DNA of 64,000 nucleotides from Nitrospirota bacterium (GTDB lineage Bacteria > Nitrospirota > UBA9217). The notes under the pieces are model-generated. The model had not been told where the DNA came from, did not search any database, and worked only from the letters and a program-made list of their open reading frames with translations. Shown piece after piece: positions 38,253 through 46,960 of the stretch (positions are counted from its first letter, which is position 1; each line of letters starts with the position of its first letter). The stretch covers positions 11,669 to 75,668 of the forward strand of contig DASPSR010000042.1 in assembly GCA_035623825.1 (NCBI GenBank), given 5' to 3'. A program made the position numbers and the translations under genes.

Positions 38253-40187
38253 TTAGGGCCGTTCTGCCTCGCTTCCGAATCCACCCGGGTATGCGCCATT
38301 CCAGAGCGGCCCGTTTGGAAGAAGATATGCCTTGGCTCCCTGGCACCAGGCGGGCGGTGTGCCGCCGCTGCACGCGGTGCTGAGAGTCGCACCGACCGAA
38401 TAGTTCATTATCCCGTCATCGAGCCAGTCGAGAGAGTCGTAGATCAATCTTTTCGCAAACCTGCTGTTATGCACATAGGCGCCCCATTCATGAGTGAGGA
38501 GGCTGAAGTTAAACGCGGCACCCAGATTGTTTTTGCCGGTCGTGTTGCCCGTTATATCCGCATCACCGGCGGAAAGCCAGTTTTTGTTGGCGAAATACGG
38601 ATAATTGGTGGTGAATGTATAACCGGATATAATGAGCTCTGCTTGGAGTGCCTGCAAGGCAGAATCGAAGTTGTTCTTTTCGTCCTGCACTACCGTACCA
38701 AAATCTATGCTGGAACCGGCATGGCAGGCAAAACAAACCGCGCTCGATACAACGATGTTCCCCATATTCGTACTGATTGGCTCAAAGAGATGGTTGCCAC
38801 TCATGCCCGTCCGGTCCATATGGCATCCGACGCAAGGGCCGTTCGAGCCGGTGTTCGGGGCATTTGGCGTGCCGATCTGATTGTGCTTGAACGAAGCGGG
38901 GTCAGCATAGTTCCTCCCGGCATATACGTACGGCGTGCCCTTGAACATCGTTCCGCCTGCGGAGAGGTAGTGTCCGTCAGGGAAACTGAAATTGCTGAAA
39001 TTCACGGTTGCTGTCTGTCCGGTATTCAAATCGCTGACCGCCGTGCCGTTTACGCGCCCCGTGTGGCAGGGAATACAGACATTCGAGATGGATAGATCAG
39101 GGTACTGGAAATATGCTGTAGAGCTCGGGGCGGAGCCGATCGTATACGTTGCCTTATAGGCTCCCGGATTCCTGAGGTCACCCGCATTGTCTGTGTGACA
39201 GCCTCTGCACTCGAGCATTTCGGGCTTGAAGTTCAAAGCAGAGGGTACAAGCGCTATGCCGCCGGCTACAATGGTTGCGGCCAATGATTGGTTTCCCGCC
39301 TGAAGCGCATCGGCATACGTCGCAAAACCGGTTGTCGTATGACAGCGCTGACAGGCGGTCCTGCTCGCCAGCGACCAGTCGTAATGAGCCCAGGCATCTG
39401 CCGCAAGCATATCCGCATGCTTCGAACTGGCCCAATCTCTGTTGATGTCGGCATTCTTATGCGGATTGTGGCAGTCGGTACAGACGGTATCGCTCGCAAA
39501 ATTCATGGCATAACCGGTAATATTATTGCTATTTTGACTAGTTCCTGACGCCCCCCAGTTGCCGGGGGTGGCAAAGTGCGTGTCAGTGATAACGTATTGA
39601 GTTCCATTGGGGGCAGGTGCCCCTGCTAAATGGGTCGGCGAAGCATTAAGAGCTCCTGTTGAGGTATCGAGCAGATTATGACAAGCCGTGCACATGACGA
39701 ATTGTCCAGAGACCGCTACGGCGCCGAAGCTTGTCCCCGTCGTGTTCGAAAGGAGGGATATCGGCCCGGCCCCGCCGGCATCTGCATGCAGGCTCCCGGG
39801 ACCGTGGCAAGCCTCGCAGCCGACCACCGGACGAGGAACATTCCCCGTGTATCCTGCTGTGAGATTGTTGCTGTCCCCGTCAGGGTCATGACAACTGATG
39901 CAGCCTGAGCCGCCTGCCTGGACAAGACCCACTGTCGGAACGCCTGCACTGTACAGGTTACCTGCAGGATCGAGATTCCCGTGTTTGCTCATAAGCCAGT
40001 CGGCTGTTTCGGTGGTATGACATCCTGCGCACCTATTCAGTCCTGCAGTCGTAGTCGCTGCAGAAAGAACGCTTGAAGTCGCCGGCCCGATAGCCGAATC
40101 GGACTTGCCGCAACCTCCGAGCATGGCGATACATGCAAGCATGAAAAGAAAAACGAGGACTGTTCTGCTTCCCTTCTTTGTATTCAT
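38253..40187 (-). CDS. decaheme c-type cytochrome lipoprotein (MtrC/OmcA-like by size, lipobox and position)
   Basis: The lipobox is IAMLGGC. The protein is 644 aa. I counted 10 CxxCH motifs: CAGCH, CISCH, CEACH, CTACH, CTDCH, CQRCH, CRGCH, CIPCH, CVGCH, CFACH. Confidence 0.75.
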   Translation of the reverse strand: MNTKKGSRTVLVFLFMLACIAMLGGCGKSDSAIGPATSSVLSAATTTAGLNRCAGCHTTETADWLMSKHGNLDPAGNLYSAGVPTVGLVQAGGSGCISCHDPDGDSNNLTAGYTGNVPRPVVGCEACHGPGSLHADAGGAGPISLLSNTTGTSFGAVAVSGQFVMCTACHNLLDTSTGALNASPTHLAGAPAPNGTQYVITDTHFATPGNWGASGTSQNSNNITGYAMNFASDTVCTDCHNPHKNADINRDWASSKHADMLAADAWAHYDWSLASRTACQRCHTTTGFATYADALQAGNQSLAATIVAGGIALVPSALNFKPEMLECRGCHTDNAGDLRNPGAYKATYTIGSAPSSTAYFQYPDLSISNVCIPCHTGRVNGTAVSDLNTGQTATVNFSNFSFPDGHYLSAGGTMFKGTPYVYAGRNYADPASFKHNQIGTPNAPNTGSNGPCVGCHMDRTGMSGNHLFEPISTNMGNIVVSSAVCFACHAGSSIDFGTVVQDEKNNFDSALQALQAELIISGYTFTTNYPYFANKNWLSAGDADITGNTTGKNNLGAAFNFSLLTHEWGAYVHNSRFAKRLIYDSLDWLDDGIMNYSVGATLSTACSGGTPPAWCQGAKAYLLPNGPLWNGAYPGGFGSEAERP

Positions 40188-40229
40188 GGTTCATACCTCC
40201 CCTAATGGCTTCACCTGCTGAACCCGGGT

Positions 40230-40276
40230 TGCTGAATGAAAGCTCATCACTTTACTCTCCTATTCCGAATTCAGCA
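40230..40276. promoter_or_regulatory. 8-bp perfect inverted repeat in the cheW-mtrC-like intercistronic gap
   Basis: TGCTGAAT (40230-40237) pairs with ATTCAGCA (40269-40276) across a 31-nt spacer. A third TGCTGAA lies at 40216-40222, and the palindrome AACCCGGGTT lies at 40221-40230. Confidence 0.25.
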
Positions 40277-40292
40277 TGTTTATATCGGCGAT

Positions 40293-40955
40293 CTACGCCC
40301 CTACCGCTTTGTGCAAGTCCAGCAGGATGTAGAGCCTGTCGTCTTTTCGCGCTATCCCCTTTAGGAACTCTGCACCTTGTTCGATGGTCTCCGGTGCAGG
40401 ACGGACGGCGTCCGGTGAGATCCGTACCACCCCGGTCACCTGATCCACGAGAATTCCCGCGTTCTCGTCATCTGGGCTTATAATGATAATCCGCGCCTTC
40501 TCGTCCCTCACGGCGGGCGGAAGGCCTAGCCGCCTTCCGAGATCCAGTACTGGCAGGACCGTTCCCCGGATCGATGTCACCCCGATGACATGTGACGGTG
40601 AATTGGGGACCATGGTGAGCTCCCTGCTTTTCAGCACTTCCTGTACATCATCTACGGGCAGGACATACTCTTCACTGCCGAGGCGGAACGAGAGCATCTC
40701 GATCTCCTGTGTGTGAATTCCACTTGCCACTCCTTCTTCAGGCTCCGGCGTGTCCCTTCTTCCGATTTCTTCCACTGCGGCGTGTTTGGCCGCTTCCGGT
40801 TGTTTCCCGACAGCTGGAGATGACGGCACAGGGCTCGCGCTGCCAGAGGGCTTTTCCGTCTGGGCAGGTTGAGCAGGGGCCGTTTCTTCGGTCTCGAGTT
40901 TGTTTTGTGTGCGTGTCCACTCCGCTGCCTTTTTCCGCGCTGCCAAGATATCCAT
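40293..40955 (-). CDS. cheW: CheW coupling protein with an 80-aa low-complexity N-terminal extension
   Basis: The C-terminal core is MLSFRLGSEEYVLPVDDVQEVL...IGVTSIRGTVLPVLDLGRRLG. The N-terminus is P/A/E/S-rich. Confidence 0.85.
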   Translation of the reverse strand: MDILAARKKAAEWTRTQNKLETEETAPAQPAQTEKPSGSASPVPSSPAVGKQPEAAKHAAVEEIGRRDTPEPEEGVASGIHTQEIEMLSFRLGSEEYVLPVDDVQEVLKSRELTMVPNSPSHVIGVTSIRGTVLPVLDLGRRLGLPPAVRDEKARIIIISPDDENAGILVDQVTGVVRISPDAVRPAPETIEQGAEFLKGIARKDDRLYILLDLHKAVGA

Positions 40956-40984
40956 AGGTCGCTAACGCTCCTACCGAAAAAAAC

Positions 40985-41866
40985 TTACAGAGAGCAGAGG
41001 ACATGGGACATATGGGAAACCATGGCCCCTCTTCTCTTTGCCTCATGCCGAATGCCCTTTCCGTCCTTCGCCCGCCCTTCTCTCACTATGCTCTCGATGA
41101 TCTCCTGGTCTATTATCTTGAGGCCCTTGCCGAAACCTTCAACGAGCGCATTGCCCGCAATGGTGTTGATAATGCGCGGAACGCCTCCTGAACGCTCGAA
41201 CAAAGCCGTGTTCGCTTCTTCATCAAAGAGCAGCGTTTCCCTCCCCGCTACCCGGAGCCGGTGCTTCACGTACTCTCGTGTCTCGTCCTCGTCAAGCGGG
41301 CCCAGGTGATACTGCATTCCGATCCTCTGCCGAAGCGCCCTGTACTGGCGTCGGTCGAGCCGCTCCCCGAGCTCTGTCTGGCCGATAAGCAGGATCGCGA
41401 GAAGGTTGCGGTCATCGAGCTGGAAATTCGTAAGCAACCGCAGTTCCTCGAACGTGGCCTTGCCGGAGATAAGCTGCGCTTCGTCAATGATGACCACCGG
41501 TCGCTTCCCGGCCTCGAAGAACTCATACAGCTTTGCATTGATTCCCTCAATGATGCTGTGGCAATCCCGGCTCGAGCACTCCATCTCGAGGCCGAGGGCC
41601 ACGGTTCTCAGAAGATGTAGCGGCGAAAGCCGCGGGTTGATTATCAGCATCGGATGAAAGCTCCCGTCCAGCGAATCGATGAGCGCACGGGAAATCATCG
41701 TCTTGCCCGTACCGATATCGCCGGTCAACAGGGCAATGTCCTGGTCCTCTGCCGCAAGCTGTAGCCGGGCGAGGGCCTCGGCATGCTTGGCGCTCTGGTA
41801 GAAAAAACGCGGGTCAGGCGTCTTTTTGAACGGCTTTTCGCTCAGTCCGTAAAATTCTTCATACAT
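40985..41866 (-). CDS. ExeA/GspA/MshM-like AAA ATPase
   Basis: The N-terminus is YEEFYGLSEKPFKKTPDPRFFYQSAKHAEALARL. Walker A is GDIGTGKT and Walker B is VVIIDEAQ. Confidence 0.75.
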   Translation of the reverse strand: MYEEFYGLSEKPFKKTPDPRFFYQSAKHAEALARLQLAAEDQDIALLTGDIGTGKTMISRALIDSLDGSFHPMLIINPRLSPLHLLRTVALGLEMECSSRDCHSIIEGINAKLYEFFEAGKRPVVIIDEAQLISGKATFEELRLLTNFQLDDRNLLAILLIGQTELGERLDRRQYRALRQRIGMQYHLGPLDEDETREYVKHRLRVAGRETLLFDEEANTALFERSGGVPRIINTIAGNALVEGFGKGLKIIDQEIIESIVREGRAKDGKGIRHEAKRRGAMVSHMSHVLCSL

Positions 41867-41998: not shown

Positions 41999-44008
41999 CT
42001 ACTGTCTGCTGACAACGACCGATCTTTTGAGAGCCCCTTCGATGAGTGATTCAACATCCAGCACGAGCACAACGCCGCGTCTGTCTCCCAGCTCCGTGGC
42101 GCCAGCAATGCCCGGTATCTCCGATATCCGCTTTCCAAGAGGCTTGATGACGATCTCCTGCTGGTCCCGGAGACCGTCAACCATGATCCCCAAGCGGCGC
42201 TCTGCGAGACCCACGAGGATGAGGTAGAATGAGTTGCTGCTGGGCTTCGGGGTCAGTTTGAACGCCTTCGTAAGCCGATAGAGCGGTATCGTGTCGCCAC
42301 GGATGGCCATCACCTCGCGTGTCTCCACGGTCTCTACCTGGTCATGCGTCGCCTGAATGATCTCGAGCACGGCGCTGAGAGGCACGGCAAACACCTCTCC
42401 GCCGGCCTCCACTACGAGTGCCTTGATGATGGCAAGGGTTATGGGAAGCGTGATGATGAATTTCGTTCCCATACCCGTCTCGGTATCGATATCAATCATA
42501 CCGGACAGCTTGGAGACATTCCGTTTCACCACGTCCAAACCCACACCACGGCCCGAGATTTCGGTTACGGTCTCGCGGGTGGTGAAGCCGGGAAGGAAAA
42601 TGATATCCAGAATCTCTTTGCGGTCGGTCTCAGGATCAAGGCCATGGTCCGAGGGGAGAACCGCTTTCTGCACTGCCTTGGCCAGGATATTCTTCGTTTC
42701 TATCCCCGCTCCGTCGTCTTCGACGGTGATCACCACATGGTTGCCCTTGGGGAATGCCGCGAGCTTTACCACACCGTGTTCCGGCTTTCCCTGCTGTTTC
42801 CGTATTTCGGGGAGTTCGATGCCGTGGTCAATGGCATTCCTTATGAGGTGCATGAGCGGGTCGGCAAGGTCCTCGATCATAAGCTTGTCGAGTTCGGTCT
42901 CTTCTCCCGAAAGATGGAGATCGATCTCCTTTCCCACTTCTTTCGCGTACTTTCTGACCATCTGTGAAAGGCGCGTAAAAATCTGGCCGATTGGAACCAT
43001 TCTAACCTCAAGGATCCCCTCCTGGAGGTCGTTCAGCTTCCTCTCCAGGCTGCGCTGCGCCTTGTGCAGATCCACGGAAAGTCCTGCGAATCCGTGCATG
43101 GATCTCAACTCACGCGCGATGCGACCGATGATGTTCTTGGTGAGGTGCATCTCACCGACTACGTTCATAAGGCCGTCAAGCTTGTAGATATCCACGCGGA
43201 CAGTATTGCTCACCGACTTGATCGCACCCGTTTCCGATACCGCCCGTTGCTCTTCCACCTTCCGCCCCTCGACGTACGTTATCGGGTCGAAGGACACCTT
43301 TGGCATATTGATCGCCGACATGAGCTCGTCACGTCCCATTGCGGTGCCGGCCACAATGGTAAATCCGATGCCGCCTGCGGCCGCGCCGGCCGTGGGCAGG
43401 GTGCAGATAATTTCAGCGTTCTTTTTGAGCACATCATTGAGGTTCTTGATGCCTTTTTCGAAATCGGTAAGCTCGAACAACGCCTTAATGGTGAAAAGGT
43501 TTTTGTGCTCCCTGATATTTTCCTTGAGTCGGTATTCTTCGTATTCCGTAAGGACTTGGAGGAGCCCGCGGTCAATTTCTATCTGATCCAGGATAGACCG
43601 GTCAGCGGCTGTGGAAGGCTTGGCTTTGAGGATTCCGTCGATGCGGTCAAGCGCGGCCGCTATGTCTTCCGGCTGCTCCTTGTTGCCCACTTGCTGCACA
43701 TGCCGTCCGAGCAGGGCCACGGTCTCGAATAGCACATCGAGGACGTCCCGGCTGAGCGCTGTTTTCCCGAGACGGACCTCGTCGAGGAGGAACTCCAGTT
43801 TGTGTGAGAGCTCTGAGGGGGCCTTGAGCCCGAACATCCCGGCGAGTCCCTTGAAGGAATGGATTGCGCGAAAAAGGCCGTTCACCAGATCCGGAGCCGA
43901 GCGCCCTGCGGCCTGTTCGGACTCAAGCGAGAGCATCGTCTGGTTGGCCGTTTCGAGAATGTCTTCCGCCTCGGCTAGAAAATCCTTTATAGAACGGTCT
44001 GATTTCAA
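41999..44008 (-). CDS. cheA: chemotaxis histidine kinase
   Basis: The Hpt motif is FRAIHSFKGLAGMFG. The HATPase block is DHGIE...GRGVGLDVV. A C-terminal CheW-like domain is present. Confidence 0.93.
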   Translation of the reverse strand: MKSDRSIKDFLAEAEDILETANQTMLSLESEQAAGRSAPDLVNGLFRAIHSFKGLAGMFGLKAPSELSHKLEFLLDEVRLGKTALSRDVLDVLFETVALLGRHVQQVGNKEQPEDIAAALDRIDGILKAKPSTAADRSILDQIEIDRGLLQVLTEYEEYRLKENIREHKNLFTIKALFELTDFEKGIKNLNDVLKKNAEIICTLPTAGAAAGGIGFTIVAGTAMGRDELMSAINMPKVSFDPITYVEGRKVEEQRAVSETGAIKSVSNTVRVDIYKLDGLMNVVGEMHLTKNIIGRIARELRSMHGFAGLSVDLHKAQRSLERKLNDLQEGILEVRMVPIGQIFTRLSQMVRKYAKEVGKEIDLHLSGEETELDKLMIEDLADPLMHLIRNAIDHGIELPEIRKQQGKPEHGVVKLAAFPKGNHVVITVEDDGAGIETKNILAKAVQKAVLPSDHGLDPETDRKEILDIIFLPGFTTRETVTEISGRGVGLDVVKRNVSKLSGMIDIDTETGMGTKFIITLPITLAIIKALVVEAGGEVFAVPLSAVLEIIQATHDQVETVETREVMAIRGDTIPLYRLTKAFKLTPKPSSNSFYLILVGLAERRLGIMVDGLRDQQEIVIKPLGKRISEIPGIAGATELGDRRGVVLVLDVESLIEGALKRSVVVSRQ

Positions 44009-44099: not shown

Positions 44100-44471
44100 C
44101 TATTCACCCTCCAACGCCTTGTTCACTGCAGCCATTAGATCTTCCTTCTTGAAAGGTTTAACTACATATCCGGTAGCCCCGAGCGCTATGCCCCTTTTTT
44201 GGTCTTCCTCGCTCTTTTCGGTGCTCACGATGATTAGGGGAATGTCCTTATAAGCGGCATTCGACTTTACAAAGCTGATCAACTCAAGGCCGTTGATGTC
44301 GGGCATATTGATGTCAGTGATTATCAGGTTGAAGCGTCGTGTGGGAAGGGTTTTGAGGGCTTCAAAGCCGTTCCCGGCTTCCACCGCAAAGAACTCTCCC
44401 ATTTCCTCGAGAGAGACCCGCATCATCGAGCGTATGGCCTTGGAATCCTCCACGATAAGGACGTTCTTCAT
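44100..44471 (-). CDS. cheY: CheY-like single-domain response regulator (intact copy)
   Basis: A 123-aa receiver domain with IVEDS...LIITDINMPDINGLE...IIVSTE...KPF. Confidence 0.9.
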   Translation of the reverse strand: MKNVLIVEDSKAIRSMMRVSLEEMGEFFAVEAGNGFEALKTLPTRRFNLIITDINMPDINGLELISFVKSNAAYKDIPLIIVSTEKSEEDQKRGIALGATGYVVKPFKKEDLMAAVNKALEGE

Positions 44472-44606
44472 TTTCGCTCCTTCTGAAGGTCGGCAGGTCT
44501 CTTTTCCAGCAGGCCCTTTTCCAAGACCATCCCCGCCTGATTGATGAATATCTCGAGAGTATCCACGCCTTTGATCGGTTTCTGATCGGGCAAGTTGTCT
44601 CCCTAT
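44289..44606. repeat. segmental duplication, copy A (5' half of intact cheY + relic 3' end of the DUF4388 gene)
   Basis: My hand alignment to 45017-45333 gives about 21 differences including one 1-nt indel over about 315 nt, roughly 93% identity. Confidence 0.85.
44468..44606 (-). pseudogene. relic 3' fragment of the DUF4388/GAF-like gene (last ~45 codons)
   Basis: It translates to NLPDQKPIKGVDTLEIFINQAGMVLEKGLLEKRPADLQKERK*. The intact gene ends NLPNQKPIKGVDTLEIFMNQAGMALEKALLEKRLADLQKERK*. It keeps the ATGA stop/start overlap with cheY. Confidence 0.75.
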
Positions 44607-44708
44607 GCGTTATCAACGCCCAAGATTCTCTTCATTTTGTTCCAAGCGCTATTACTGTTTTTTTATCGCATCCTTATGAATCCATCCTATGCTCGACTTG
44701 CAATATTT

Positions 44709-44738
44709 ATACTAAATTTATATTTTAAAATATGTCAA
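44709..44738 (-). promoter_or_regulatory. possible sigma70-like promoter inside the AT-rich insert, pointing at intact cheY-cheA
   Basis: The minus strand reads TTGACA (44733-44738), an 18-nt spacer, then TAGTAT (44709-44714). The AT-rich context makes chance matches likely. Confidence 0.2.
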
Positions 44739-45016
44739 TAAATCAATTTGTTACAGCGCGTGAAACGCTTTCCCCAGTGTTGGAAAATACTACACTGATG
44801 GAATCTTAACGGACAAAATTTGACAGAGCAGTCTTGGCTCTTTAAAAATCTCGGGGCGCTTTTCGAGAGAACAGCGGCTCCCGGTTGAGCTTGGCTAAAC
44901 TGGGTTCAGATATTTCTTGGAAGAGCAGGGAAACAGCTTCGTATTCAATCGCGATCACTTGGTGACGGTGTACGTCGTATGCGACGGAACAGGCGTTACA
45001 AAGCTGATTGGAAAAA

Positions 45017-45198
45017 GCCGTTGATGTCGGGCATATTGATGTCAGTGATGATCAGGTTGAAGCGGTTTGCGGGAAGAGTTTTGAGGGCTTCAAAGCCGTT
45101 CCCGGCTTCCACCGCAAAGAACTCTCCCGTTTCCTCGAGAGAGACCCGCATCATCGAGCGTATGGCCTCGAATCCTCCACGATAAAGACGTTCTTCAT
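45017..45198 (-). pseudogene. cheY fragment: frameshifted and 3'-truncated
   Basis: It starts with ATGA overlapping the stop of the upstream gene. A 1-nt deletion relative to copy A (GGCCTCGAATCC versus GGCCTTGGAATCC) gives MKNVFIVEDSRPYAR*. Homology ends after the DINMPDING codons. Confidence 0.8.
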
Positions 45199-45333
45199 TT
45201 TCGCTCCTTCTGGAGGTCGGCAAGTCTCTTTTCCAGCAGGGCCTTTTCCAGGGCCATCCCTGCCTGGTTCATGAATATCTCGAGAGTATCCACGCCTTTG
45301 ATCGGTTTCTGATTAGGCAAGTTGTCACCATAT
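45017..45333. repeat. segmental duplication, copy B (truncated cheY fragment + genuine 3' end of the DUF4388 gene)
   Basis: See copy A. The offset between copies is 727-728 nt. Confidence 0.85.
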
Positions 45334-46340
45334 ACAACCAGCGCTATCTTTCCGTCCACAATCAGCGGTATTGCGAGTACCATATCGGGCTTGACCCCGC
45401 CGAGCTCATTGACGAGGTAGTTGTTGCTCTCATTCGATGCAAGCTGACCGAGAAAACTTCGTCGGTTTTCGATCACCGTAAGGAACAGCGACGGTTGATT
45501 GAGCGGGATTTTGATATTGCGGACGACCTGGTCGGCGGACATGTTCTTGAGGTCTATCCCGAACTGGCCGAGACCTCGAACCTCGTCCTTCTTCACCATG
45601 AACAAGATAGCACGGTTGACAACCTCGCTCGCATACCGCAGGATGAGGAGCGTCACCTCTGCCGTTGCTGTGGGGAACCTTAGTTCGTCGAACATGGACT
45701 TGAGCACAGTGATCTCTCTGCGCGGTACTTCTGTCTCTATGCGGGTGAGGAACTCTTCTTTGGCCGGTTCGTAGCTGACGCGGTGAGTGGCCGGAGCTTT
45801 TGATGACGGGGCGGCTGTCTTGTGCATGCCTTTCCGCTTCTCATCGAGGATCCGCGTTCCCTCCATGAGGAGATACTCGGCACTGATGCCGGACTTGAGC
45901 AGGAACTCCTGGGTGTCTATCTCGAAATTGTCCTTTGAGGCTATATCTCCGAGCTCGAAGTTGAAAAAGCCCTCTTCCCACGCAAGCAGATCATAGATGA
46001 TCTCCTCAATCTGTTTACGGACGACGGTCTCGAGCGTTTGTGCGGGCACGACCCCCATCTCCACGAGGATCATGCCGAGTGGCTTGTCGACTTTCTCCTT
46101 TTGCAGCGCCAGCGCCTGGGACAGCGCCGTTTCGGTCAGCATTCCCTGCGAGACAAGGATATTTCCAAGGGAATCGCGGATACTGTCACTAGCGGCCTGA
46201 ATTACCTGGCCGCCCTTGAATACGACCATCCCTGTTCCCTTGCGGCTACGCACAAGGAGGGTGCCGGTTTTCTTACTCAGACTAATGATCTGGAAGATAT
46301 CGGGTAAAGCAAGATCTTCCAGCCTGCCAACAAGGCTCAT
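45195..46340 (-). CDS. DUF4388 (PatA-N-like) + tandem MshEN/T2SSE_N-like motifs + GAF-like C-terminal domain
   Basis: The N-terminus LEDLALPDIFQIISLSKKTGTLLV...VVFKGGQVIQA is the DUF4388 pattern. SLGNILVSQGMLTETALSQALALQ and PLGMILVEMGVVPAQTLETVVRKQ fit xLGxx(LVI)(LVI)xxG(LVI)(LVI)xxxxLxxxLxxQ. Confidence 0.7.
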   Translation of the reverse strand: MSLVGRLEDLALPDIFQIISLSKKTGTLLVRSRKGTGMVVFKGGQVIQAASDSIRDSLGNILVSQGMLTETALSQALALQKEKVDKPLGMILVEMGVVPAQTLETVVRKQIEEIIYDLLAWEEGFFNFELGDIASKDNFEIDTQEFLLKSGISAEYLLMEGTRILDEKRKGMHKTAAPSSKAPATHRVSYEPAKEEFLTRIETEVPRREITVLKSMFDELRFPTATAEVTLLILRYASEVVNRAILFMVKKDEVRGLGQFGIDLKNMSADQVVRNIKIPLNQPSLFLTVIENRRSFLGQLASNESNNYLVNELGGVKPDMVLAIPLIVDGKIALVVYGDNLPNQKPIKGVDTLEIFMNQAGMALEKALLEKRLADLQKERK

Positions 46341-46462: not shown

Positions 46463-46960
46463 CTATGTGCTCCGGTAATTCGTAAACTGAAGCTCAAGGC
46501 CAAACTCTTTTTCTTTTAGGAGCTGAATGACAGCCTGGAGGTCGTCCCGGTTCTTGCCGGATACCCTGACCTGGTCTGCCTGGATCGACGCCTGGACCTT
46601 GACCTTGGAATCCTTGATAGCTTTCACGATCTCCTTGGCCTTATCCGTCGGAATCCCCTGCTGGAGCTTCGCATGTTGCCGTACGGCGCCACCCTGAGCA
46701 GGCTCCACTTTGCCGAAGGAAATATTCTTGATCGGCACTCTACGCTTGACGAGCTTGCCCTCAAGAATATCGACCACGCTCTTGAGCTTGTACTCGTCAT
46801 CGGAAACGATTACAAGCGCATCCTTCTCCTGCGTAATGTTTGATTTGCTTCCTTTGAAATCGAACCGCTGGCTGATCTCCTTTAGAGCCTGGCTCACCGC
46901 GTTCGTTACCTCGGCCATATCAATTTTCGAAACAACATCGAATGAGTTTTCCGCCGCCAT
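46463..46960 (-). CDS. yajQ: YajQ-family nucleotide-binding protein (UPF0234)
   Basis: A 165-aa protein with [33 protein letters not shown], the characteristic YajQ N-terminus. Confidence 0.88.

Follow-up and report, generated by a model that had tools for sequence, protein, structure and literature searches.

In a 64-kb stretch of DNA from a Nitrospirota bacterium (contig DASPSR010000042.1 of assembly GCA_035623825.1), the junction between a DUF4388 gene and the response regulator gene cheY is present twice in direct orientation, and the two intact genes are held apart by truncated copies of themselves and by a non-coding spacer. This whole stretch is called the window here; all coordinates refer to it, and the locus is read on the minus strand. 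The list of open reading frames (ORFs) together with Pfam gives the order yajQ, DUF4388 gene, duplicated region, cheY, cheA, AAA_22 ATPase gene and cheW. For the duplicated part, the original prediction had described the intact DUF4388 gene followed by a frameshifted cheY fragment, the spacer, a DUF4388 relic and the intact cheY, and this order matches the ORF list. The features are collected in Table 1.

Table 1. Features of the DUF4388-cheY locus, in the order in which they are read on the minus strand (nt, nucleotides).
Feature	Position in the window	Strand	Basis
yajQ	46463-46960	-	ORF list
DUF4388 (PATAN) gene, intact, 381 amino acids	45195-46340	-	ORF; Pfam DUF4388, E = 1.5e-32
Copy B of the high-identity repeat: functional DUF4388 3' end (45195-45333) and 5' part of the cheY pseudogene	44996-45333	-	Repeat search, blastn, Smith-Waterman
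Relic of cheY (pseudogene fragment), equivalent to nt 1 to about 216 of the gene	44985-45198	-	cheY DNA profile; alignments
Spacer core, non-coding, about 345 nt	44640-44984	-	Profile boundaries
Most conserved non-coding spacer block, 65 nt, candidate regulator-binding region	44775-44839	-	Identity 0.90
Promoter-like AT-rich segment	44700-44753	-	TTGACA (44738-44733), N18, TAGTAT (44714-44709); scan score 10/12
DUF4388 3'-end relic, last 55-57 codons approximately	44472-44636	-	DUF4388 DNA profile
Copy A of the high-identity repeat: DUF4388 relic and 5' 205 nt of functional cheY	44267-44606	-	Repeat search, blastn, Smith-Waterman
cheY, intact, 123 amino acids, receiver domain	44100-44471	-	ORF; Pfam Response_reg, E = 3e-27
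cheA, 669 amino acids, next operon gene	41999-44008	-	Pfam Hpt, H-kinase_dim, HATPase_c and CheW domains

The repeat search returned two adjoining families of direct repeats, 44443-44606/45170-45333 at 92% and 44286-44440/45014-45168 at 95% identity, which are offset by 727 and 728 nt, respectively, and parted by a 1-nt indel. blastn merges them into a single direct repeat of 340 nt with 91.5% identity (27 mismatches, 2 gaps, E = 1e-132), and a Smith-Waterman alignment agrees. The two copies are collinear, have the same orientation and are similar far above chance; both contain the ATGA in which the stop codon of the DUF4388 gene overlaps the start codon of cheY. The proposed duplication of this junction inside the che operon is thus borne out. 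At the cheY end the repeat reaches 44996/44267, past an 8-nt divergent patch and about 20 nt beyond the edge given originally.

The homology of the relics extends further than the high-identity tract. Up to 51 genomes went into DNA profiles for cheY, the 3' end of the DUF4388 gene and the 5' end of cheA, which were run against the loci carrying the duplication. The cheY profile matches the relic at model positions 1-216 in the window and 2-207/226 in 11 relatives; in all 12 taxa the homology runs from nt 1-4 of cheY (where the contig reaches that far) to nt 207-226, which places its end in the window at about 44985. The DUF4388 profile matches at positions 305-453 in the window and from 282-290 to 453 in nine relatives. 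This homology begins about 170 nt before the stop codon in nine taxa; in the window it is detectable from 44618 and by orthology starts at about 44636. Judged by these profiles, the duplicated unit is about 390 nt long and comprises the last 170 nt or so of the DUF4388 gene, the source of that side, and the first 220 nt or so of cheY. The repeat of the original prediction therefore stands in a slightly longer form, whereas the 410-bp insert does not, since the spacer shrinks to about 345 nt.

In each unit the redundant half-copy is disabled. The cheY relic carries a 1-nt deletion near 45170, which shifts the frame to a stop after 15 codons, and it lacks the 3' 40% of the gene. The DUF4388 relic is only partial and is broken in the window by a TAG at 44606-44604, leaving an ORF of 41 amino acids that starts with TTG (44468-44593); other species have independent indels. 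The last 25 nt or so of this relic contain the Shine-Dalgarno sequence of cheY, and the intact cheY overlaps the relic frame (from 44472) through the ATGA. A start-like piece in the relic, MKRILGVDN in the window and MKTILIVDD in relatives, was considered as the beginning of another response regulator gene and was rejected, as it corresponds to the 'IPLIVDG' segment of DUF4388. The DUF4388 profile runs through this piece in nine taxa and the relic peptide of two relatives (L075 and L088; L-numbers denote fetched contigs or loci that carry the locus or are related to it) is collinear with the DUF4388 C-terminus without gaps; the piece keeps a weak similarity to cheY segments (E = 0.9-5). The C-terminal half of the DUF4388 protein, for which 2150 homologues were retrieved, is GAF-like (45195-45700, minus strand; GAF_2 below threshold with 21 bits against a cut-off of 28.6). 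A precomputed PF13185 match is present in some homologues, and it is the end of this GAF-like domain that was duplicated.

The structure was found repeatedly. The exact DUF4388 protein is present on seven contigs and the exact CheY on 11, from JGI and ENA assemblies of at least nine samples. Over the 2.5-kb region that holds the spacer and the two copies, 10 loci do not differ from the window at all (100% identity), and an eleventh is 99.96% identical. A scan with one genome per species yielded 55 related Nitrospirota loci. The two closest of them (88% DUF4388 identity) have the same duplicated architecture, one on a 957-kb contig of the metagenome-assembled genome MFD10007.bin.2.19, whose name fits the Nanopore Microflora Danica genome set (PMC12313526); the link to that study is deduced from the name. 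The remaining 53 loci have cheY directly 3' of the DUF4388 gene. In the 43 outgroup loci whose DUF4388 match is full-length, the two genes always lie 0, 3 or 6 nt apart. This comparison with uninterrupted orthologous loci identifies a tightly coupled DUF4388-cheY pair as the ancestral state, as had been proposed from the window.

Additional carriers came from a metagenome scan with a conserved spacer motif and from look-ups of DUF4388 homologues with 96, 92 and 87% identity; a homologue with 86% identity is without the duplicated structure. About 12 distinct lineages with 87-100% DUF4388 identity carry it, and their spacers, relics and junctions align end to end. In the DUF4388 protein tree the carriers, a small clade of soil and peat Nitrospirota, form one group without any uninterrupted locus nested within. 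Because spacer and junctions are orthologous and the carriers are one clade, a single event in their common ancestor is indicated, and the sequence comparison shows the duplication to be real, old and of single origin.

There is virtually no room for an assembly artefact, whether from strain variants in a wrongly resolved bubble or from a chimeric join. What would speak for it is that several contigs (L010 and the short-read contigs L013, L069, L072 and L082) begin or stop inside or beside the repeat and that the head of L010 looks hybrid. Yet the same structure was obtained from at least nine samples with two pipelines, it occurs on the 957-kb contig from a long-read genome project, and every segment is orthologous with species-level divergence across the lineages. 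Furthermore, relics of other species have deletions of their own, of 15 nt and 16 nt, which assembler error would not conserve. Identity across samples and orthology across about 12 lineages thus effectively rule out an artefact and also collapsed strain variation, an option that the original prediction had kept. The repeat itself fragments assemblies, so partial contigs could pass for loci without the duplication. At the head of L010 (positions 1-110; ENA ERZ27251256, k141_1163258; corresponding to window positions of about 45260-45358), approximately 24 nt resembling the spacer end are followed by a DUF4388-relic-like piece that matches neither of the two repeat copies in the window; then come copy B, spacer, copy A and cheY with 100% identity. 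This head could be a third, hybrid repeat unit that arose in one population when unequal crossover amplified the repeat, or the contig end could be chimeric.

The age of the duplication is not reflected in the divergence of its copies. Compared within one genome, copies A and B have an identity of 0.89-0.93 in the window and in L085, and of 0.95 in the available part of L082; the value is 0.65-0.78 in L014, L015, L074, L079, L081, L083, L086 and L088. Had the copies diverged freely since the duplication, the difference between them should be no smaller than that between orthologous relics of different species, which is the case in most lineages. In neighbour-joining trees of both repeat halves, the window relic is the sister of the functional window copy and not of the relics of other species. 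Site-pattern counts give a similar picture. Comparing the window with L082, nine informative sites group by genome and three by copy, the latter clustered at the 3' edge of the tract at about 45013/44284. With L014, 20 sites group by genome and three by copy, and after polarisation with outgroups each lineage shows derived states common to both of its copies (9 + 9). For the window and L085, one site groups by genome and 15 by copy, which places the conversion before their split, and within the L014 clade the counts are 0-1 by genome against 24-38 by copy. The edges of the tract in the window are sharp, at 45333/44606 and about 45013/44284.

These patterns indicate that relics and live copies undergo concerted evolution by gene conversion, the relics being rewritten time and again from the live genes; weighing against this is that the neighbour-joining trees are built on short, fast-evolving relics. 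The simplest history needs conversion on no fewer than three occasions: on the stem leading to the L014 clade, on that leading to window and L085, and in L082. On the side of window and L083 there may have been another, older one. The copies in the window are 92% identical because conversion was recent in this subclade, and their divergence of about 7% dates the last conversion and not the duplication. The 7% thus fails as a measure of the age of the event, which predates the radiation of the 12 or so lineages.

Concerted evolution by gene conversion is known, for instance, from duplicate tuf genes and rRNA operons. The present case is alike in the lineage-specific substitutions found in both copies, in the defined tract edge and in the recurrence across lineages; it differs in that the partners are dead relics of two different genes in one short repeat. 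In contrast to antigenic variation of the pilE/pilS type, there is no sign that conversion generates diversity here, and it appears to be incidental.

The spacer core includes an AT-rich stretch (44650-44800) in which the GC content falls to 23-29%. It contains no ORF with a frame conserved across the carriers and encodes no transposase or integrase. Smith-Waterman comparison of the spacer with the cheY 3' part, the cheY-cheA spacer, the cheA 5' part, yajQ, the yajQ-DUF4388 spacer and the body of the DUF4388 gene gave no score above shuffled controls. An nhmmer profile of the spacer, run on both strands of the window and of 75 fetched loci (+/-6 kb for 55 related loci), found the spacer itself and, through its first 30 positions or so, which belong to the cheY relic, about 30 nt of cheY; nothing else was significant. 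No match to it was detected in plasmid and phage collections, and none of these comparisons yielded a source for the spacer.

These results bear on the possibility of a plain tandem duplication of about 728 nt without foreign DNA, in which the spacer would be the decayed remainder of the cheY 3' part, the cheY-cheA spacer and the cheA start. The offset of 727/728 nt is indeed close to the combined length of the DUF4388 3' part, cheY, the intergenic region and about 40 cheA codons, both relics reach beyond the high-identity tract, and weak matches can be seen by eye (GACGAGG against GAGTGAGG in cheY, and GAGCATAG..ATAAGGAT against GAGCGTAG..ATAAAGGAT near the cheA start). However, the cheY profile ends at nearly the same place in 12 of 12 taxa, the cheA 5' profile found no match in the carrier loci, and the spacer profile gave nothing significant in the cheY 3' part, intergenic regions, cheA, DUF4388 gene or yajQ of 55 genomes. 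Since the equally old relics are still detected at E = 1e-22 to 1e-54, we regard a decayed tandem copy as quite improbable.

Alternatively, the spacer could be the remnant of a mobile element, such as an insertion sequence (IS), a miniature inverted-repeat transposable element (MITE) or a stub of a circle or prophage, and the repeats its target or attachment duplication. The layout invites this comparison: an intact 5' gene with a truncated copy, an insert, and a truncated copy with an intact 3' gene are the single-crossover product expected of a circle with an internal fragment, as in Campbell-type integration, and a 13-nt imperfect inverted repeat (44674-44686/44797-44809) flanks the AT-rich part. 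But target duplications made by transposases measure 2-15 bp, far less than the 390 nt or so duplicated here, which together with the missing transposase agrees with the original assessment. The inverted repeat is internal, and its arms do not co-vary. Further copies of the insert, suggested earlier as a sign of a MITE or other mobile remnant, were found neither in the window nor in the fetched loci. In a scan across JGI metagenomes, the conserved spacer block (44775-44839), which is single-copy within the window, had 14 matches, nine of them this locus and five chance matches sharing the motif only; this confinement argues against the remnant of a multi-copy MITE or IS. An integrative element of the icd or tRNA attachment type is likewise at odds with a non-coding spacer of 345 nt that resembles neither phage nor plasmid. 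Taken together, we consider a mobile-element remnant unlikely. The layout would be given by a single crossover with a circle carrying a junction fragment, and equally by template switching during replication with addition of filler DNA.

Two known situations are instructive here. A Campbell-type merodiploid shares with this locus the direct repeats, one intact and one truncated copy per gene, the unrelated DNA between them and the restoration of the parental state by crossover. Laboratory merodiploids are quickly lost without selection. The locus differs in having no vector or element genes, a spacer of only about 345 nt and a stability that lasted through the divergence of about 12 lineages. 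Phage 21 and e14 integrate into icd and bring along a diverged copy of the 3' end of the gene. The similarity lies in a diverged direct repeat of more than 100 nt of gene-end sequence, with the gene kept intact and the displaced fragment left as a relic. Unlike in that case, there is no integrase or element body, the duplication spans a junction and preserves both genes, and the similarity of the repeats stems from conversion within the genome and not from a foreign copy.

The spacer is not conserved evenly. Conservation was tested in the L014 clade, where the relics are free of conversion and serve as neutral baseline. Mean pairwise identity is 0.93 for functional coding sequence, 0.76 for the relics, 0.90 for the block at 44775-44839 and 0.86 for the promoter-like part (44700-44749). 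The 65-nt block lies above every relic window of 65 columns and holds an invariant imperfect palindrome, CTGTCAAATTTTG(Y)C, as well as GATTCCATCAGTG..TTTTCCAACAC; the two sub-motifs do not recur beyond chance in the window. About 37 nt downstream of it lies the promoter-like segment, where TTGACA-N18-TAGTAT has a -35/-10 spacing within the 16-18 nt of a sigma-70-type promoter, as a consensus match. It overlaps the conserved GTATAAATATTGC, and an IHF-consensus-like AATCAATTTGTTA was noticed by eye at 44741-44753 (plus strand). Promoter-like hexamers had been predicted on both strands and both are present. On the minus strand, the promoter-like segment is kept in all carrier lineages; the hexamers on the plus strand (TTGACA-N17-TAAAAA) have a -10 that is not conserved, and L082 has a deletion there.

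Possibly, the type of promoter varies within the clade. By eye, the L014 subclade reads TGGTATAAATATTGCT at the -10 position, which combines the GG-N10-GC spacing of sigma-54-type promoters with an extended -10 (TGnTATAAA); in the window subclade this position reads TAGTAT, without the first G of GG-N10-GC, but TTGACA is perfect. The two subclades may thus differ in promoter type. TGGTATAAATATTGCT is found at about 7600-7620 of L014 and at the same position in L015, L074, L079, L081 and L086; the conserved block lies 40-100 nt upstream of it, and the interval contains an IHF-like site. The inverted repeat mentioned above (TTATGAATCCATC/GATGGAATCTTAA) brackets the promoter-like segment. One of its arms lies inside the conserved block and the other drifts (GATGGATT to GATAGATT) without compensation, so protein-binding half-sites or chance are likelier than an RNA stem.

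The conserved 65-nt block and the absence of any spacer loss despite repeated conversion favour selection on the spacer. Recombination between direct repeats has two possible outcomes, conversion and deletion. RecA-dependent deletion between repeats is well documented in E. coli (for example PMC10669199). At this locus such a deletion would exactly restore the coupled operon and thus would not be harmful in itself; among the approximately 12 carrier lineages sampled, no spacer-free revertant was found. We infer that the spacer is kept by selection, most plausibly as a promoter/operator for cheY-cheA-AAA-cheW. Transcription of cheA would then come from a promoter located in the spacer as well, in line with the suggestion that the insert rewired expression of the downstream genes. 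A more specific version is that the spacer is a selected regulatory cassette, consisting of a 65-nt operator or activator site plus promoter, which the junction duplication would have placed between two translationally coupled genes and which would give this clade independent control of the cheY-cheA-cheW module. The relic repeats, whose similarity conversion maintains, would offer a one-step route back to the coupled operon, and copy-number variants, such as the possible third copy at the head of L010, could tune expression; we put this forward tentatively.

Several points weigh against a promoter maintained by selection. The identity of the promoter-like block (0.86) is not significantly above that of the relics, 18% of relic windows being as high, and AT-rich DNA readily matches sigma-70 hexamers. 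The -35 degrades to TTTAAT in some lineages, and the -10 region is sigma-54-like in one subclade and reads TAG... in the window subclade. A terminator scan of the locus found no terminator between the DUF4388 gene and the spacer, so read-through from the upstream promoter probably continues and the uncoupling may be only partial. In addition, the lack of revertants comes from a sample of about 12 lineages.

Some of these points would also fit a neutral scar, a functionless spacer that persists because deletion between diverged repeats of about 340-390 nt is rare and drift is slow. Repeats that are only 65-78% identical, as in most lineages, are a poor substrate, given that homologous recombination is strongly suppressed at such identity; and the relic ORF is open in some lineages and broken in others. 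On the other hand, a neutral scar leaves the excess conservation of the 65-nt block over all relic windows unexplained, and the several conversions show recombination between the repeats to take place, although none of the 12 or so lineages sampled has a fixed deletion. A neutral scar is possible, but we hold it to be doubtful.

It might also be considered that the region encodes a small RNA or a small protein, for instance a peptide of 41-72 amino acids with the DUF4388 C-terminal helix that is translationally coupled to cheY. An open frame of 44-72 codons leads into the cheY ATGA in the window, L082, L085, L075, L088 and L079, with Shine-Dalgarno-like GGGAG/GGAGG ahead of an ATG in several of these taxa; counted from the first ATG after this motif, the relic frame encodes 55 amino acids in L082 and L085 and 60 in L075 and L088. 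However, the frame is broken by the TAG in the window, by a 16-nt deletion in the L014 subclade and by a stop four codons upstream in L083. A conserved small gene over the DUF4388 relic was rejected on these grounds. In L083, the gene caller lengthened cheY to 144 amino acids. An RNA finds little encouragement either: the RNAalifold consensus reaches -8 kcal/mol and is penalised by its covariation term, which is positive; where the cheY relic borders the spacer, a candidate hairpin is disrupted without compensation in three taxa; and Rfam has no family in the spacer (the only match, a chance hit to HgcG with E = 7.7, lies outside it). A small RNA or protein is thus very unlikely.

The surroundings of the locus provided further observations. 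In a relative with 92% identity (L083:2333-3000 and L084; JGI 3300057024 and 3300056895), the spacer between yajQ and the DUF4388 gene measures 668 nt compared to 122 nt. Just after the conserved upstream promoter-like TATAAT, about 550 nt have been added, with the direct repeat CCACATGCTTT(T)AGCGG on either side. The operon has here received a second insertion between repeats, independent of the first. Downstream, the chemosensory-like cluster (38253-41866, minus strand) has the AAA_22 ATPase gene between cheA and cheW, followed by a gene for a multihaem cytochrome of 644 amino acids, and the order cheA/AAA_22/cheW/cytochrome is kept in the fetched loci of the same species.

From these data we can propose a history that we consider probable as a whole. 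In the ancestor of the clade, about 390 nt across the stop/start overlap of DUF4388 gene and cheY were duplicated in direct orientation, and about 345 nt of unrelated non-coding DNA came to lie where the two units meet. Both genes kept one intact copy, and the other half-copies became pseudogene relics. Non-reciprocal gene conversion between relics and live copies followed on at least three separate occasions, the recent one in the window subclade leaving the 92% identical copies with sharp tract edges. If the repeats crossed over, the spacer would be lost and the coupled operon of the ancestor re-established; the spacer has probably been retained by selection as an internal promoter/operator, by which cheY-cheA-(AAA ATPase)-cheW would be transcribed or regulated apart from the DUF4388 gene.

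The acquisition of a promoter inside an operon through inserted DNA is known from outward-facing IS promoters. The AT-rich insert with -35/-10-like hexamers facing the downstream genes resembles this; unlike there, no IS is present, and the conserved upstream block suggests regulated and not constitutive initiation. The locus therefore belongs to known categories, namely partial direct duplication with relics, concerted evolution and possibly promoter gain, and is not a new kind of system.

Three things that are mostly investigated apart come together at this locus. An overlapping gene pair can be split without loss of either gene; gene conversion can keep dead fragments young-looking, which makes the divergence of repeats a poor clock; and non-coding DNA inserted within an operon may be recruited for regulation. 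In practice, short-read contigs break at a genuine, conserved repeat of such length, which may then be taken for strain collapse. If the spacer is a promoter, the regulation of a chemosensory-like pathway would have changed specifically in this lineage of uncultured Nitrospirota.

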